DNA of 64,000 bases from an uncultured Ignavibacteriales bacterium (lineage in GTDB: Bacteria; Bacteroidota; Ignavibacteria; UBA10030; SZUA-254), in contig CAVQPS010000009.1 in assembly GCA_963714795.1 (NCBI GenBank), positions 806,709 to 870,708 of the forward strand, read 5' to 3'. The position numbers and the translations under genes are program-made. Below, piece by piece: positions 5,576-64,000 of the stretch; within the stretch, counting starts at the first letter, position 1; every line of letters begins with the position of its first letter. The notes below the pieces were generated by a model that saw nothing but the letters and a program-made list of their open reading frames with translations, was not told the DNA's origin and searched no databases.

Positions 5576-8261
5576 ATGTCCAAACAATACGATATCCGCC
5601 TGAATCCGGAAGTTCTTCTTCGTTCGCTCAAACGGGCTGAAGGAAAAGAGGGTAAGGGACACCTGAAAATTTTCTTCGGTATGTGCGCCGGCGTCGGTAA
5701 AACATACGAGATGCTGCAAGCGGCACAGGAGGCGAAGAAAAAAGCGATTGATGTCGTCATTGGATTTGTTGAAACGCACGGCCGGAAAGAAACCGAAGCG
5801 CTTCTCGGCGACCTGTTCATCGTCCCGCGAAAAAAAATCGAATATCACGGTGCCGTTCTCGAAGAAATGGACCTCGATGCCATTCTTGCCAGAAAACCGA
5901 CCCTGGTGCTGGTCGATGAGCTTGCACATTCCAATGCCCCCGGAAGCCGTCATACGAAACGATATCTCGATGTTCTGGAATTACTCGATAACGGCATCGA
6001 TGTGTATACGGCGCTGAATGTTCAGCACCTTGAGAGCCGTGCTGATACCGTTGCTCAGATTACCGGCAGTATCGTTCGGGAAACCGTTCCCGATTCCGTA
6101 TTTGAACGAGCGGATGAAGTGACCGTGATCGATTTGCCGGCTGATGAATTGCTGAAGCGGCTCGCAGAAGGAAAAGTGTATACGACGGAACGTTCACAGC
6201 GGGCGGTCGAACACTTTTTCCGTAAAGGCAATCTCACCGCGTTGCGTGAAATGTGTTTGCGTATTGCCGCGGAACGGGTCGAGCATCAGTTACGCGACAT
6301 TATGCAGGTCGAGCGAATTTCCGGCCCGTGGAAATCCGGACAGCGCCTGATTTTCGGCATCAGTCCGAGCCCGACGTCCGTTCGCCTCATTCGATGGACT
6401 CGCCGGATGGCATTTACCATGCAGGCAAGCTGGGTGGCGGTCTACGTTGAGAGGTCGGCGCCCTTGAGCGATCACGGAAAAAGATCAGCTTGCAAAAAAT
6501 ATCGCGCTTGCACGGGAATTGGGAGCGGAAATTGTTACAACCGCCGATGAAGATGTTGCCGCTGCATTGCTCCGCGTTGCACGCGAACAAAATGTTACTC
6601 AGGTTATCGTCGGTAAATCTGATAAAACTGTTCGATTTCAACGAAGCGTTCTCAATCAATTGATTGAGCAAAGCGGTGATCTCGACGTTTATATTGTCGG
6701 TGGCGATCAGGAAGAGTCTGCAGAAAAAGGAAAATTACATTTTCCCGTTATCCAATCGAATATTCTTCAATATCTTGCCGCGACCGCTCTTGTGTCGCTT
6801 GTTGCCGCTCTCTGTTATCCGTTCAACGATGTTATCGGCTATCAAACGGTTTCTCTGTTTCTGTTATTGACCATCGCTCTTCTTCCGTTGCGGTTGGGGG
6901 CCGGTCCGGTTATTCTTGCCGCCGGTATCAGCGCGTTGTTGTGGGATTATTTTTTTATACCGCCGAAATTCACCTTCGCCGTTTATTCCTTTCAGGATAT
7001 TTTGATGCTTGTGGTCTATTTCGCGATTGCGGCGGTGACCGGAGTGCTGACGGTTCGCGTGCGTGCCCGCGGAAAGGCAGTTCAGCTCCGGGAAGAACGC
7101 GCGTTGGCATTATATGCGTTGACGAATGAGTTGTCGATTGCCAACAGTCAGGATGCTGTTGTCGAGGCGGCGGTGAGAAATATCAAGAAATTTTTCAATG
7201 CGGAAGTGGCAATTTTTTTAAGTAGTCTCGAAGGAGATTTTCTCAACGTTCCGCATCCGCAAAGCACATTCTCACCGGGAGAAAAAGAACTCAGCGTTCC
7301 GGCGTGGGTTCATTGGAATGAAAAACGTGCCGGGAAATTTACCGACACGCTTCCGTTTGCAGAGGCAACATATTTTCCGCTTGCCGGACCGCGTTATCCG
7401 ATGGGCGTTGCCGGCGTAAAACTTGAAGGGGACAGGCGGTTGACGGTTGACCAGGAAATATTGTTCGGAAATTTTCTCAGTCAAATTTCATCCGCACTCG
7501 ATCGCGAATTTCTCAACGAGATGGCGAAACAATCGATCGCTCTTGCAGAATCGGAACGGCTGTATACGACGCTGTTCAACTCCATTTCACACGAGATGCG
7601 TACACCGATTACCGCTCTCATCAGCGCATCGGAGGGATTATTGAACGATGCTGTCGGCCAACAACCGCAGCTGAGGCGTGATCTTGCCGCCGAAGTCCAG
7701 GAAGCCGCAAACCGTCTCGACCATATCGTGCAAAATCTTCTCGCCATGGCGCGTTTTGAATCGGGGCTCATCAAACCGAAATTGGACTGGTGCGATATTC
7801 GCGATGTCATCAATTCATCCATCGGAAAAATGAAGAACGATCTCACACATCATCCTGTTCAGATCGATATTGCGGAACCCGTGCCGTTGATAAAATTGGA
7901 TTTCGGATTGATGGAACAGGTTTTGTTGAACTTGCTTCGTAATGCCTCCGAATACACGCCGTCCGGTTCCACGATTCGCATCGGCGTTCAGACGAATGAA
8001 CGGGAATGTATTTTAACGGTTGCCGATAACGGTCCCGGATTTCCCGTGGAATCGCTCGGCAAAGTATTCGATAAATTTTACCGGGTCCCGGGATCGAAAA
8101 CAGGCGGACTTGGGCTCGGGCTTTCCATCTCGTCAGGTTTTGTTCGAGCGCATCATGGAAACATTTCCGTCGAAAACCAAACCGGTGGCGGTGCATGTTT
8201 TACGATTCGACTTCCGATCAATGAACGCGCAACAATTTCCAGCGAGGTCACCGATGGATAA
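5576..8261 (+). CDS. kdpD: Sensor histidine kinase KdpD (KdpD_N + Usp + TM + GAF-like + HisKA/HATPase). It is interrupted by a +1 frameshift inside the Usp domain near 6474-6482.
   Basis: ORF 5576..6550 carries the KdpD N-terminal domain (GMCAGVGKTYEML walker-like, LVDELAHSN) and ends ...AVYVERSAPLSDHGKRS. The frame +1 ORF 6519..8261 continues with ...EKDQLAKNIALARELGAEIVTTADED, then TM helices, H-box SHEMRTPIT, N/G boxes and GLGLGLSI. Removing one base in GGAAAAAG joins them into a contiguous KdpD-like Usp domain. Confidence 0.85.
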
Positions 8262-59570: not shown

Positions 59571-60842
59571 CTAAATACTTGACCAGACAAGAATCCGCTT
59601 TCTTGAAAAGCTTTTTGTTTTTCTTGCTTTCGCAGACATTTCGACTCGCGGGGATTTGTATGTTTTTCGCAGTCGTTCCTGTACATTTTGTAAGTAAGCA
59701 AAATGCACCGGTGAGTGATGTTGCATCATATCGATGTACAGGTTGTCGTACCATTTTTTATTGATCGTGATCGCTTCGAAAATCAGTAGCCGGCAGCTTT
59801 GCTCAATCAATGTCCGAAATTTTTGCGATTCTGCGGACTGCTCACCCTCAACCGGGCCGGTGACAACATCAAGAAACGATAGAAGATGATTTGTAAAGAA
59901 GTGAAGCGATTTTCGACAGGCAAACGCTCCTGCCAATGTTCGCTGGTTACGGCAACGGTCTTCTTCGATGTCCTGGAGATCGTCGATAAGTTGAAGCAGC
60001 ACGCCGAACCGGAATAAAAAGACCGCGTCGGCTTCGGATAAATCACCCGCCACGAGGTAACCATCTGCAAGTACCGATGTTCCGCCCTTTTCGATGCTGA
60101 TATCGAGCAAATCATCCGGCGTGAGATCGGTACCGTTGAATTGAAAAACGCTTCTCGTTTGTCCCTGATGAATTGCGATCATGCTTTCAAATACTTGAGG
60201 GCAATCGGTCCGATCGAATTCTTGTTCAACCATGCAAACAAGACGATCAATTGTCCGCTCGCGGCTGTTGTGTGCCGGAACGACAATACCGTTCAGGCGA
60301 AGAAGGAGACGATCGTTTGCCTCGCGCTTCATCTGAATATCGACATCCATAGCGTCAAGATAATTATCGGTGTAGGGATATAACATGCTGTAAGCAAAAA
60401 CAGACGGTGTGAGACAAATTTCTCTGCCGAGATACATCTGGATGGAATTCATAATGAGAACATTCCGGGAGGCCTGGTAGACCGCCTCATCACCGATATC
60501 GGGATCGAAATCATACGCACGCCGGATAAATTCATCCGTAACTGTGGAAAACCTCGTTTCCATGTCATCATCAATGATGCAATCGAAGCTGTGGAGGAGT
60601 TGAACAATGGCCCGTTGAATTCGACTTCGTACTTCCAACCGGTTTTTTTTCTCAATACGTTTGCCCTGTTTCCTGATGATGCTTGCGGTCGTATCGACGT
60701 CGCGCATCAGCCGGTCGATTTCAGCCTCTTTCTGCAGTTGTTGCTCTGCAGTATAAGAGTGATTTCGCTGAGGAACATGAGTCGACGAACGGGTCCAAAG
60801 GTCGAAGGAGTCTGTTTTTAGTGTATCAATTGTCGTCCGCAC
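59571..60842 (-). CDS. Hypothetical protein with isoprenoid-synthase-like Asp-rich motifs
   Basis: 423 aa, no signal peptide. GVLLQLIDDLQDIEEDRCRNQRT resembles the GxxFQxxDDxxD motif of polyprenyl synthases and the DxxED motif of squalene/phytoene synthases. An upstream YDFDPDIGDE / DNYLDAMD may be a second acidic motif. Confidence 0.35.
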   Translation of the reverse strand: MRTTIDTLKTDSFDLWTRSSTHVPQRNHSYTAEQQLQKEAEIDRLMRDVDTTASIIRKQGKRIEKKNRLEVRSRIQRAIVQLLHSFDCIIDDDMETRFSTVTDEFIRRAYDFDPDIGDEAVYQASRNVLIMNSIQMYLGREICLTPSVFAYSMLYPYTDNYLDAMDVDIQMKREANDRLLLRLNGIVVPAHNSRERTIDRLVCMVEQEFDRTDCPQVFESMIAIHQGQTRSVFQFNGTDLTPDDLLDISIEKGGTSVLADGYLVAGDLSEADAVFLFRFGVLLQLIDDLQDIEEDRCRNQRTLAGAFACRKSLHFFTNHLLSFLDVVTGPVEGEQSAESQKFRTLIEQSCRLLIFEAITINKKWYDNLYIDMMQHHSPVHFAYLQNVQERLRKTYKSPRVEMSAKARKTKSFSRKRILVWSSI

Positions 60843-61182: not shown

Positions 61183-62007
61183 TCATCCGGCTAATGTTCG
61201 ATCGATCGTACCGAGCAGGTCTGAACGCATCAATGGCTTAGCAATGAAATCCGAAGCGCCTAATTCTTTGGCCTCCACCGCCAGTTTCAGTTCGCTGTAT
61301 GCACTAACAATGACGACTTTGGTTTTGATGGAATGTTCCTGGATGAATTTCATCACACCGTATCCCGAGACCATCGGCATGAAAATATCCAATAGCACGA
61401 GATCGAATTGTTCCTTCTGTAACTTGTCGATTGCTTCACTCCCGTCTTCCGCCTGTGTGATAGAAAAGCCTTCGTTGGCAAGCATTTCGTTCACCACGAA
61501 GCGAAAAGCGTCATCGTCATCTACCAGAAGAATCCGTTTACCCTTCCGATCTTTTTCGGGTGGAGGTTCGTTCGCCAAAGGATGAGTGGCTGTCGTAGGA
61601 TTCAGAGAAGGCACGGTATTGGCAACCTCGGGAGAGTGTGGTGCGACGTGAGGATGTGGGGCGGTGAGGTTTTGAAAGTGCCGTAACATTTCAGCAACGG
61701 AGCTTTCTTGCCGGACGACGACACAGTCCTTCTCGCTGATCTGTGTGACTTTGGATGGATCCCCTTCCGAAGAGATGAAGATGAATGGAAGTCTTCCGGC
61801 AATTCCCTGCGCAGCACGATGGAACTCTACTCCATCCATGGATGGCATATAGAGATCAGAGATAACTATGTCCACCTTCTCGGTTTGAAGCGCGCGCAAC
61901 CCCGCCCGGGCACTGCTGGCAAGCGAAACGGTAAATCCCTCCCGCACAATCTCAGAACGAATCTGAAACCGCCTTGCCGCATTATTTGTTACGACCAAAA
62001 TATGCAT
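61183..62007 (-). CDS. Orphan response regulator with two tandem receiver (REC) domains and no output domain
   Basis: REC1 HILVV...DIVISDLYMPSMDG. A Pro/His/Thr-rich linker. REC2 RILLVDDDDAFR...DLVLLDIFMPMVSG...FIAKP. Confidence 0.8.
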   Translation of the reverse strand: MHILVVTNNAARRFQIRSEIVREGFTVSLASSARAGLRALQTEKVDIVISDLYMPSMDGVEFHRAAQGIAGRLPFIFISSEGDPSKVTQISEKDCVVVRQESSVAEMLRHFQNLTAPHPHVAPHSPEVANTVPSLNPTTATHPLANEPPPEKDRKGKRILLVDDDDAFRFVVNEMLANEGFSITQAEDGSEAIDKLQKEQFDLVLLDIFMPMVSGYGVMKFIQEHSIKTKVVIVSAYSELKLAVEAKELGASDFIAKPLMRSDLLGTIDRTLAG

Positions 62008-62285
62008 AACTCCCCTCCGCTCCCGCGGGTATAGAAATGGTCCCTTTACTCTTTAAAAAATGTACAAAAGAGGAAGTACAAAAGCAATCCTCCAATTGGC
62101 ATGACGCACGGAGTTTTTCGATGGATGAAGTGGGAAAATGGGGTGGGTCATCGTGATACGTATAACGTTTTGTGATTTGTCTCACAGGAATATACGCCAT
62201 GGGGTTAATCTAGATCACAGCCCCTGTTGCCATTATTAATAAATGTCCTAATTTTGAGTTATCATAACAATTATACCGGAGCTCA

Positions 62286-63368
62286 ATGGGAGAGATGGTA
62301 TTACATGAACGCGAAATAATGCAAGGTGTCAGCAATCGTGATGAGGCCTTGCTTGCGCGGTTATATGATCTATACGGTCAAACCGTTTACAACCTGGTTT
62401 ATTACATCACCCACTCGATTGAAGAAGCTGAAACGCTCACACAGGATGTGTTTTTAACAATCTGGCAGAAAGCGTCATCAATCGACCTGCAACGCGGGAC
62501 CGTTGAAGACTGGATTCTTAACAAGGCCAAAGAAGTTGCTGTCGTACGATCCCAGTCGAATCTGCAAACGATGGTCATCAAGCAGAAACTTAATGGCAAT
62601 GCACAAACGTTTGTCGAAAAGGAAACTAACCGGATCAAAGAACTCTCCTCTGTTAATCCGGTATTACTGAAAAATGTTTTACTGAGTCCCGAAGTAAAAG
62701 AAAATATCTTTTTCACCATTCATGTGGCTCGGATTGCAGAAGCGGAAACCCAAACTTTTCGCAAAAACGGAAATCAAACGTCAATAAATCAAAAGAATGG
62801 CGTGCCCTGGTTCCACAAAAAAATTTGTTGGCCTGTCATCGAAAAAGCGCTTGCTGCGATTGCTGTTATCGTCTTTATTGCATTACTCATCGATGTCATA
62901 TTGATAAAAATCGATCGCCAGGGGGAAATTATTTCACAGCAATACAATAGAAATGTTCAACTTGAGCGTGAAATTGATGAGAAGCAAAATGTTGTGGATT
63001 TTTTTCAAGCCCGCAGATTGTCCATGATCTTTCTCGCGGGACTGAGCACCGATTCCATGGTGTCGGGAAAAATATTTTGGGATCCGGACCGGAAGATAGC
63101 ACTACTGCAGTTTTTAAATCTCCGGGCAACACTTCCCAATGAGAATTATCAACTCTGGGTGACAAGAAATTCATCGGTCACAAATGTTTGCGAGTTTGAA
63201 ATAACTCAACCCGGAAAATCATTCTGTAAAATCCTGCCACTCGATCTTCTTGCGCCTGCCAAAGTTTCTGTCATAGAGCTGAGAGTGGAACCGAAGGATG
63301 AAATTTCAAAGCCAGACGGCGAGGCAGTTTTGTCGGCAATTTTACCACACGTAATTATCTTCGGCTAA
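62286..63368 (+). CDS. Fusion protein: an ECF sigma-70 region-2-like N-terminus, one TM helix, and a C-terminal anti-sigma-K (RskA)-like domain
   Basis: LLARLYDLYGQTVYNLVYYITHSIEEAETLTQDVFLTIWQKASSID...WILNKAKEVAV gives sigma regions 2.1-2.4. TM helix ALAAIAVIVFIALLIDVILI. C-terminal YQLWVT...VSVIELRVEPK resembles RskA_C. Confidence 0.6.
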   Translation: MGEMVLHEREIMQGVSNRDEALLARLYDLYGQTVYNLVYYITHSIEEAETLTQDVFLTIWQKASSIDLQRGTVEDWILNKAKEVAVVRSQSNLQTMVIKQKLNGNAQTFVEKETNRIKELSSVNPVLLKNVLLSPEVKENIFFTIHVARIAEAETQTFRKNGNQTSINQKNGVPWFHKKICWPVIEKALAAIAVIVFIALLIDVILIKIDRQGEIISQQYNRNVQLEREIDEKQNVVDFFQARRLSMIFLAGLSTDSMVSGKIFWDPDRKIALLQFLNLRATLPNENYQLWVTRNSSVTNVCEFEITQPGKSFCKILPLDLLAPAKVSVIELRVEPKDEISKPDGEAVLSAILPHVIIFG

Positions 63369-63560: not shown

Positions 63561-63917
63561 TCAGATGGTTTCTTTCTGTGTTTGCGATTCACCGGAATCC
63601 CAACCACAGCGACGCCGCCATTCCTGTCTGAATTTTTCCCGTTCTTCGGGCGCCATCGATGACAGTTTGTCCTCAAGACGGTGTTTCCACCGATCATGTC
63701 GCCAGCCATTCGCATACCGCCATCTTCCCCATCCGCGCAGGAGTATGTGAGAAAGTATCAGCAATCCCACGGCTTGCCAAAATGTAATGACCGGTCCTTT
63801 GAAGATGTCCGGAACCAGCGCATTCCACAGCAGCATCACGGCAAATCCCAGAACGATGCTTCCAACAATGATCATGAGAAAAAATTTTCCGATTGTCAAT
63901 GGCCATCTGTGTTTCAT
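63561..63917 (-). CDS. Small membrane protein (two TM helices, Arg/Trp-rich C-terminus)
   Basis: 118 aa: MKHRWPLTIGKFFLMIIVGSIVLGFAVMLLW.... No recognisable family. Confidence 0.45.
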   Translation of the reverse strand: MKHRWPLTIGKFFLMIIVGSIVLGFAVMLLWNALVPDIFKGPVITFWQAVGLLILSHILLRGWGRWRYANGWRHDRWKHRLEDKLSSMAPEEREKFRQEWRRRCGWDSGESQTQKETI

Positions 63918-64000
63918 ATTTCACTCCTATAGATTTTGAATGTCGTCATAAAGTTCTTTGAGTTGTTCCCGCAAAAATAATACTGCATACCGCTTGCGGG

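Follow-up and report, generated by a model that had tools for sequence, protein, structure and literature searches.

A membrane-anchored protein joining ECF sigma region 2 to an RskA-type anti-sigma remnant, without sigma region 4, in an uncultured Ignavibacteriales bacterium

Domain architecture of the 360-residue protein

The stretch of DNA analysed here (the window) comprises 64,000 nucleotides of contig CAVQPS010000009.1 from an uncultured Ignavibacteriales bacterium and carries, close to its end, a gene for a 360-residue protein. This protein unites region 2 of an extracytoplasmic function (ECF) sigma factor (sigma2), one transmembrane helix and an RskA-type C-terminal domain in a single open reading frame (ORF), as the initial annotation of the sequence had proposed, and it has no sigma region 4 (sigma4). 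Between sigma2 and the membrane lie two helices that, judged by homology, derive from the cytoplasmic anti-sigma domain (ASD) of an RskA-type protein. The features of the gene are listed below with the evidence for each, where AF2 stands for the AlphaFold 2 model, HMM for hidden Markov model and dN/dS for the ratio of nonsynonymous to synonymous substitution rates.

62286..63368, + strand: whole gene, 360 residues, with sigma2, helix 3 remnant, ASD helix 4, spacer, transmembrane helix, coiled coil and RskA_C (ATG start; relatives conserved end to end; AF2)
62289..62585, + strand: ECF sigma region 2 domain, residues ~2–100 (Pfam, own HMM, superposition on 4lup_A)
62601..62645, + strand: putative anti-sigma helix 3 remnant, residues 106–120, without CxxC zinc ligands, at the presumed deletion junction (alignment, AF2)
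62688..62771, + strand: putative counterpart of class I anti-sigma helix 4, residues 135–162 (PEVKENIFFTIHVARIAEAE...), the most constrained segment (alignment, AF2, dN/dS)
62772..62837, + strand: flexible juxtamembrane spacer, residues 163–184, of which 166–179 are predicted to be disordered (model confidence, weak conservation)
62838..62912, + strand: single transmembrane helix, residues ~185–209 (Kyte-Doolittle)
62913..63005, + strand: extracytoplasmic helical stalk or coiled coil, residues 210–240 (AF2; kept in conventional RskA-type relatives)
63006..63365, + strand: RskA_C-type beta-sandwich, residues 241–360, with the tail PH(V/I/L)IIFG (Pfam, BLASTP, AF2 strands within 245–359)

The identity of the N-terminal domain was supported by profile and structural comparisons alike. 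Pfam Sigma70_r2 scored 29.0 bits (cutoff 24) over residues 26–78, and our own ECF HMM scored 96 bits over residues 7–100, covering positions 9–102 of the 192 in the model and ending at 102. The best NCBIfam matches, PRK12519 and the SigK model PRK09646, were met through their N-terminal ~100 positions only, and the best solved relative in the Protein Data Bank was Mycobacterium tuberculosis SigK, matching residues 11–89. In Foldseek comparisons, the first ~90 residues of the predicted structure superposed on region 2 of Escherichia coli sigmaE (4lup_A) with a TM-score of 0.84 and a root-mean-square deviation (rmsd) of 1.6 Å, whereas whole ECF sigma factors reached a TM-score of only ~0.5 at an rmsd of 8–15 Å, which argues against a hidden sigma4.

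Sigma4, described initially as weak or absent, is absent: neither Pfam nor NCBIfam matched it in the 360-residue protein or in any of the seven family members, and the model contains no such structure. A cryptic sigma4 in residues 100–165 was considered and rejected, because this segment holds just two helices, whose homologues are helices 3 and 4 of anti-sigma factors, and because of the poor superposition of whole sigma factors. The protein thus has one of the two domains that define an ECF sigma factor. Within sigma2, of the regions 2.1–2.4 noted initially, 2.1–2.3 are canonical. Measured against 38 canonical ECF sigma factors, positions conserved in 2.1–2.3 are retained at frequencies of at least 0.83 among the sigma4-less proteins, including the Q, F and W of DxxQ[ED]xFxxxW and a second conserved W, and often better than in full one-chain fusions. 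The end of region 2.4 beside the junction is degenerate, its I-D-x-x-R motif having been lost (0.25–0.58); residue numbers on the E. coli RpoE ruler used for region 2 positions are approximate.

The remaining domains were assigned as follows. The Kyte-Doolittle profile peaked at 3.23 over residues 189–207, within the sole hydrophobic segment and hence the sole transmembrane candidate, in agreement with the single helix first proposed. RskA_C scored below its Pfam cutoff in the window protein (19.6 against 29.4 bits, E 0.0011, residues 189–337) and is nonetheless clear at the family level: six of the seven family members match it, other sigma2-only members score 55–84 bits (P0006, 55.6; P0007, 70.9), and the family profile recovered RskA_C proteins with E-values down to 1e-33. 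Structurally, the C-terminal domain is a generic immunoglobulin-like sandwich with no close solved relative. The initial reading of this half as a transmembrane RskA-like anti-sigma domain needs amending, as RskA_C is the extracytoplasmic part and not the anti-sigma domain; the real cytoplasmic ASD is mostly deleted, what appears to be retained of it being helix 4 and a cysteine-less remnant of helix 3. Pfam found neither zf-HC2 nor RskA_N in the protein, and no receiver domain within the chain.

A side observation concerns the C-terminal tail PH(V/I/L)IIFG (window 63345–63365, residues 354–360), which varies little or not at all among the five members of the window's family and does not occur in other RskA_C proteins; a short terminal strand is modelled at residues 357–359. 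A scan for sigma-70-type promoters and terminators returned nothing exceeding chance. Upstream of the gene, TAATTTTG at 62249–62256 on the + strand, 30 nt before the start codon, fits TAnnTTTG, the Bacteroidota housekeeping −7 promoter consensus; this is one short match and may be due to chance.

The AF2 model of the full-length protein was of high confidence, with a mean predicted local distance difference test score (pLDDT) of 90.1. It shows four sigma2 helices (residues 2–16, 20–42, 45–61 and 73–99), two further helices (106–120 and 135–162, the latter at pLDDT ~96), a stretch with pLDDT below 50 (166–179), one continuous helix forming the transmembrane segment and stalk (182–240) and the beta-sandwich (245–359). 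The cytoplasmic fragment 1–165 modelled alone reached a pLDDT of 92.6 and a predicted TM-score (pTM) of 0.85; it is predicted to be a single compact module in which both helices that follow sigma2 are confidently placed relative to it, suggesting that the second of them, helix 135–162, contacts the protein's own sigma2.

Class I ASDs engage a sigma factor in two ways: a bundle made of helices 1–3 binds sigma4, and helix 4, set off by a flexible linker, binds sigma2 at regions 2.1/2.2, where sigma2 also meets the beta' clamp helices (PMC7406223). Aligned jointly with full sigma/anti-sigma fusions, the window protein fits them at both ends and departs from them by one clean internal gap, in which sigma4, the first anti-sigma helices and the zinc motif (HxxxCxxC) are all missing. 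Residues 106–120 align with what follows CxxC in conventional relatives and in full fusions and are free of cysteine, and residues 135–162 align with PPELKERILF...RLAxVA of conventional RskA-type proteins, where this helix follows the CxxC helix and a linker and is for that reason helix 4. By homology, we assign residues 135–162 to anti-sigma helix 4 and residues 106–120 to a cysteine-less remnant of helix 3. The wider-family profile also reaches solved anti-sigma cytoplasmic domains, namely RslA (3hug_B, E 4e-6), RskA (4nqw_B, E 0.023) and RsiW (5wuq_C, E 0.035). Of the class I hallmarks, the protein thus lacks the helix 1–3 bundle, which often carries an H-x3-C-x2-C zinc site, and has helix 4 by homology; of those of the RskA family, it has RskA_C after a single transmembrane helix, whereas its gene does not lie directly downstream of a cognate SigK-type sigma gene, its upstream neighbour being a divergent gene for a protein with two receiver domains. 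As read from these alignments, one interacting pair is kept (sigma2 and helix 4) and the other is lost (sigma4 and helices 1–3).

Relatives, selection and probable origin

We next consider whether the ORF is real. Five close relatives of 357–363 residues, found on independent metagenome contigs, share 86, 86, 64 and 53% identity with the window protein, the fifth being an identical database entry; one of them is named as coming from a Bacteroidota metagenome-assembled genome (MAG). An assembly or frameshift artefact was rejected, because the same full-length ORF recurs at 86, 64 and 53% identity on independent contigs from different samples; there is also no sigma4-like sequence in other frames. 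Against three relatives, Nei-Gojobori dN/dS was 0.22–0.38 for the whole gene, 0.14–0.34 for sigma2, 0.06–0.35 for the middle (helix 4) segment, with 0.06 against the closest relative, and 0.23–0.41 for RskA_C, so that every folded part is under purifying selection; the juxtamembrane spacer (residues 163–184) is poorly conserved, with dN/dS up to ~1. The best-conserved stretch, FVEKET.RI.ELSSV.P..L.NVLL.PEVKENI.FT, lies mid-protein, in neither the sigma nor the RskA part, and its most conserved portion, PEVKENIFFTIHVARIA (residues 135–154), is the one that aligns with class I anti-sigma helix 4.

Word-indexed homology searches returned only five to seven relatives; the wider family came from an exhaustive profile search, and Pfam scans of its matches distinguished three architectures. 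Conventional RskA-type anti-sigma factors (~290 residues) have a zinc-finger ASD, the linker and helix LP..LPP..PPELKERILF..RLA.VA, a transmembrane helix and RskA_C, and match the query from residue ~111 on. Full one-chain fusions (414–499 residues) comprise sigma2, sigma4, an ASD with H-x3/4-C-x2-C, the same linker, a transmembrane helix and RskA_C. The type found in the window (280–363 residues) consists of sigma2, linker, transmembrane helix and RskA_C. Among 175 proteins, six diverged clusters had sigma2 and RskA_C without sigma4, and 14 were full fusions; a later search added a further sigma4-less set (P0176, P0177, P0180, P0207 and P0215).

The closest relatives in species-representative genomes are ordinary two-gene operons of the FCB group; long matches there that had been taken for full fusions proved, upon inspection of the ORFs, to be conventional adjacent gene pairs. 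In Rhodohalobacter sulfatireducens WB101 (L025), genes for a 202-residue sigma factor and a 268-residue RskA-type anti-sigma factor overlap by 4 nt, and in an Ignavibacteria MAG (L013), genes for a 201-residue sigma factor and a 287-residue RskA-type anti-sigma factor lie 3 nt apart. In comparisons with the latter pair, window residues 11–91 matched residues 24–104 of the free sigma factor (38% identity, E 4e-18), and residues 117–349 matched residues 46–280 of the anti-sigma factor (28% identity, BLASTP E 1e-30). The parts of the pair with no match in the window protein are sigma residues 105–201 and anti-sigma residues 1–45, on either side of the gene junction; a single in-frame deletion across such a junction would yield the sigma2-only architecture.

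A series of Bryobacteraceae proteins at 60–70% identity displays the corresponding stages side by side. It includes separate genes (sigma P0266 and RskA P0187, which starts MSCEEL...), read-through fusions in which an internal ...GMSCAEL... is still present (P0178 and P0179) and sigma4-less forms (P0134, P0177 and P0180), whose gap runs from just past LYAGVE to just before APPARLRRRLL, the helix 4 sequence. In a neighbour-joining tree of the shared part, built without bootstrap support, sigma4-less forms fall in three places, two of them beside full-fusion clades, and the form is apparently of more than one origin.

Two observations on individual family members may be added. Full sigma2-sigma4-ASD-transmembrane-RskA_C fusions (P0011–P0015, P0019, P0022–P0025, P0038, P0071, P0079, P0117, P0178 and P0179) make up at least 14 diverged clusters in metagenomes, Rokubacteria MAGs included, and we found no discussion of this RskA-type full hybrid in the literature searched. 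The alignment of P0177 starts inside sigma2, and its stop-to-stop frame (L008:5830-6912, against the called gene at 6001-6915) runs ~57 codons upstream of the called start, so gene calling has probably cut off the N-terminus of the database protein.

Genomic context and proposed function

Three neighbouring genes bear on the possible partners of the protein:

63927..64000, − strand: 3' end (last ~24 codons) of a complete 170-residue ECF sigma gene that continues past the end of the window (L001:4774-5286(−), Sigma70_r2 and r4)
63561..63917, − strand: gene for a 118-residue membrane protein, next downstream of the 170-residue sigma gene (ORF; no family match; same order in L001–L003)
61183..62007, − strand: divergent gene for a protein with two receiver (REC) domains, REC-REC (two Response_reg stretches)

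It had been noted that the window has no separate ECF sigma gene, which holds only because the window ends where it does, the complete 170-residue sigma gene having just its 3' end inside. That gene is convergent to the target gene, ~560 bp downstream of it, and between its product and the sigma2 of the target no significant similarity was seen. The relative with 53% identity (L004) has a different sigma gene, 5.7 kb off, whose product is 30% identical to the 170-residue sigma factor. A 145-residue neighbour in L002 and L003, at first sight sigma4 only and a candidate for half of a split sigma factor, was discarded as an effect of start-codon choice. In other lineages, sigma4-less genes sit as orphans among housekeeping genes, and none of four other sigma2-only contexts (P0007, P0177, P0180 and P0134) has a directly adjacent sigma gene. 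Such orphan status would be expected had the former sigma gene turned into the N-terminal domain. Neither outcome that would have overturned the initial reading was obtained: the locus is not a conventional pair, with a clear region 4 and a separate downstream anti-sigma gene, and RskA does match at the family level.

A functional link to the tandem-REC regulator had also been suggested; it is not supported, because the gene stands beside the target only in the window and its closest relatives (L001, L002 and L003) and is absent in L004 and in the other lineages. The REC-REC protein is itself a stand-alone tandem receiver, of which receiver 2 has, by eye, a canonical acidic pocket (DDDD...D...S...K), and receiver 1, in which TNN replaces the N-terminal acidic pair, may be a pseudo-receiver. 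The 118-residue protein has two transmembrane segments and may be a regulator of the 170-residue sigma factor. Further upstream, at 59571-60842 on the − strand, a 423-residue protein without a significant family match carries the DDxxD-like LIDDLQDIEED, is matched weakly by Polyprenyl_synt (E 0.038) and could be a diverged prenyltransferase or terpene-synthase-like enzyme. The gene at the same position in L002 and L003 (454 residues as called) has no family match, its likeness to the 423-residue gene being positional, and a link between the target and this upstream gene was dropped, since the 421-residue gene beside P0005 is unrelated.

Taken as a whole, we assign a probability of about 0.55 to the explanation that the protein derives from a SigK/RskA-type sigma/anti-sigma module through the loss of sigma4, is self-masked, is released by a signal and acts as a modulator. 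The components of this explanation differ in strength. The derivation from a SigK/RskA-type module is for the most part demonstrated; the protein can be neither a normal sigma factor nor a normal anti-sigma factor; and it is most likely a self-masked, signal-gated sigma2 module with a regulatory, modulating output. A modulating role is favoured because, without sigma4, the −35 element would not be read and, without the helix 1–3 bundle, sigma4 would not be clamped. For the same reason, the suggestion of one-component signalling does not hold: a protein lacking sigma4 is no self-sufficient one-component sigma factor of the IutY or ECF52 kind.

In the mechanism that we propose, one in-frame deletion, either across the junction of adjacent sigma and anti-sigma genes or inside a read-through fusion, would have removed sigma4 together with its partner, that is, anti-sigma helices 1–2 with their zinc site and the first part of helix 3. 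Sigma2 and helix 4 would have survived in one chain with the original transmembrane helix, stalk and extracytoplasmic RskA_C. At rest, helix 4 would lie in cis against regions 2.1/2.2 of sigma2, covering the face for the beta' clamp helices and keeping the module masked at the membrane. When RskA_C senses a signal, sigma2 may then be freed or unmasked by regulated proteolysis or a change of conformation, as is usual for RskA-type proteins. The site-2 protease Rip1 has the RskA of M. tuberculosis among its substrates. In IutY, a fused sigma domain is freed by regulated intramembrane proteolysis (PMC8999054), and PhyR exemplifies sigma mimicry by a non-transcribing sigma-like domain (PMC7826278). 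As output, we prefer a sigma mimic or decoy that would compete for helix 4 of a paralogous RskA-type anti-sigma factor or for the clamp helices of core polymerase, and that would in this way tune a SigK-type regulon lying in another part of the genome.

Several points weigh against this explanation. The 64-kb window contains no paralogous SigK/RskA pair. For the predicted contact between helix 4 and sigma2 in cis, pTM and pLDDT are indirect measures, and the fused and paired relatives in the AF2 alignment could have imprinted the docked state. For the presumed proteolysis step, no site-2 protease or partner was identified; a decoy or competitor role would be stoichiometrically demanding for a membrane protein of probably low abundance; and the well-kept residues of region 2.3 are compatible with promoter melting as well. 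The number of independent origins is uncertain, because the tree carries no support values. A more far-reaching possibility, which we regard as tentative and on balance doubtful, is that these proteins form a distinct class of transducer, a membrane-tethered 'half sigma' produced repeatedly by the same deletion, in which sigma2 would be masked in cis, released by a signal and act on RNA polymerase or on a paralogous anti-sigma factor, be it as a sigma4-independent initiation factor, a core competitor or a PhyR-like decoy. If true, ECF systems would include a mode of regulation that has not been described for them.

The retention and conservation of helix 4, the transmembrane helix and RskA_C, together with the complete sigma gene downstream in the window family and the other one near the L004 gene, would also fit a trans-acting anti-sigma factor, in which helix 4 binds the sigma2 of a separate ECF sigma factor such as the 170-residue one and the sigma2-like domain replaces the helix 1–3 bundle as the second contact. 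We consider this unlikely, as the bundle that binds sigma4 is gone, the neighbouring sigma gene is convergent and has a downstream gene of its own, its product has no significant similarity to the target's sigma2, the divergence of the L004 sigma leaves no conserved partner, other sigma2-only lineages have no directly adjacent sigma gene, and helix 4 is predicted to form a compact module with the sigma2 of its own chain. A reduced but functional sigma factor, in which sigma2 alone would direct polymerase to −10-like promoters or would pair with an unlinked sigma4 protein, strikes us as quite improbable. T4 gp55 is a precedent for sigma2 acting alone, and Bacillus subtilis SigO-RsoA is one for a split sigma factor; however, we know of no ECF sigma factor that works without sigma4. 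This idea draws on the canonical regions 2.1–2.3, whose conserved aromatics are kept better than in full fusions, on the purifying selection on sigma2, on the very close fit of its fold to sigmaE region 2 in the −10 DNA-bound form (4lup_A) and on the existence of split ECF-type sigma factors, namely SigO-RsoA (PMC7826278). At the same time, no sigma4-only ORF was detected at E ≤ 10 in the window or in the flanks of 12 related loci, the I-D-x-x-R end of region 2.4 has been lost, and helix 4 is predicted to cover the face that binds core polymerase (PMC7406223).

The third rival, an evolutionary relic in which a sigma/anti-sigma pair was inactivated by deletion and the remaining ORF is open but without function, seems to us very improbable. 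The deleted parts are essential to both parent functions, the form is rare (~15 clusters at 90% identity, where conventional RskA proteins number in the hundreds) and no partner gene is conserved, all of which a relic would accommodate. Yet no member of the family, down to 53% identity (synonymous divergence, dS, ~1.4), has a disrupted ORF, dN/dS is 0.06–0.41 in all folded domains, the same architecture recurs in distant lineages and the junction helices are the best-conserved part of the protein.

Comparison with known systems

ECF sigma/anti-sigma pairs are one of the main bacterial routes of trans-membrane signalling, and the presumed deletion follows the modular interface of their complex, sigma4 leaving with helices 1–3 and sigma2 staying with helix 4. 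The modular deletion and the selection in several lineages suggest that sigma2 is useful in itself when alone and maskable; if true, these proteins would offer a natural minimal system for the gating of sigma2 by helix 4 and may represent a new kind of modulator of sigma competition. They also illustrate that an annotation as 'sigma-70 family' from region 2 alone can mislead on function. In the literature searched, we found no description of a membrane-anchored sigma2 with helix 4 and RskA_C but without sigma4. The two large censuses of ECF sigma factors demand both sigma2 and sigma4 (PMC7826278, PMC7671368), and because of this, sigma4-less proteins are filtered out and annotated just as 'sigma factor'.

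The nearest known systems are SigK/RskA-type operons, whose solved pair is that of M. tuberculosis (4NQW). As in these, sigma2 is SigK-like, and helix 4, the single transmembrane helix, the stalk and RskA_C are homologous to those of the anti-sigma factor; unlike them, the window protein is encoded by one gene rather than two and lacks sigma4, anti-sigma helices 1–2, the zinc motif and an upstream sigma gene. Sigma/anti-sigma hybrids are known as well, namely IutY of Pseudomonas putida (ECF243), ECF48/52/53 and some ECF36 members (PMC8999054), and what is unusual here is the sigma4-less form rather than the fusion as such, which the initial annotation called rare. With these hybrids, and with uncharacterised full fusions such as P0011-P0015, P0071, P0117 and P0178, the window protein shares a sigma part and a membrane-spanning anti-sigma-like extension in one chain, probable proteolytic control and an origin by gene fusion. 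The hybrids, however, keep sigma2 and sigma4 fused to a complete ASD and one or more transmembrane segments, and can for that reason release a competent sigma factor; the window protein, having neither sigma4 nor most of the ASD, cannot.

To our knowledge, PhyR, an anti-anti-sigma factor from the general stress response of Alphaproteobacteria, is the one well-studied case in which a sigma-like domain regulates without transcribing. The likeness would be purely functional: in both proteins, the sigma-like domain would start no transcription and would stay covered by another part of the chain until a signal comes. PhyR is a soluble protein with degenerate sigma2 and sigma4 that is covered by its receiver and responds to phosphorylation, whereas the window protein has sigma2 only, an anti-sigma helix and a membrane anchor; no receiver is fused to its sigma-like domain, and the adjoining REC-REC gene is not conserved with it. 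SigO-RsoA of B. subtilis (PMC7826278) and T4 gp55 resemble the window protein in having a polypeptide with sigma region 2 and no region 4. They differ from it in being soluble and in working with a partner of their own, whose gene lies next door in the case of SigO-RsoA; here, sigma2 is tethered to the membrane and fused to an anti-sigma helix, and no ORF for a sigma4 partner was found in the window or in the 12 related loci. Hybrids, sigma mimicry and split sigma factors are already established, and what is new is the sigma4-less form.

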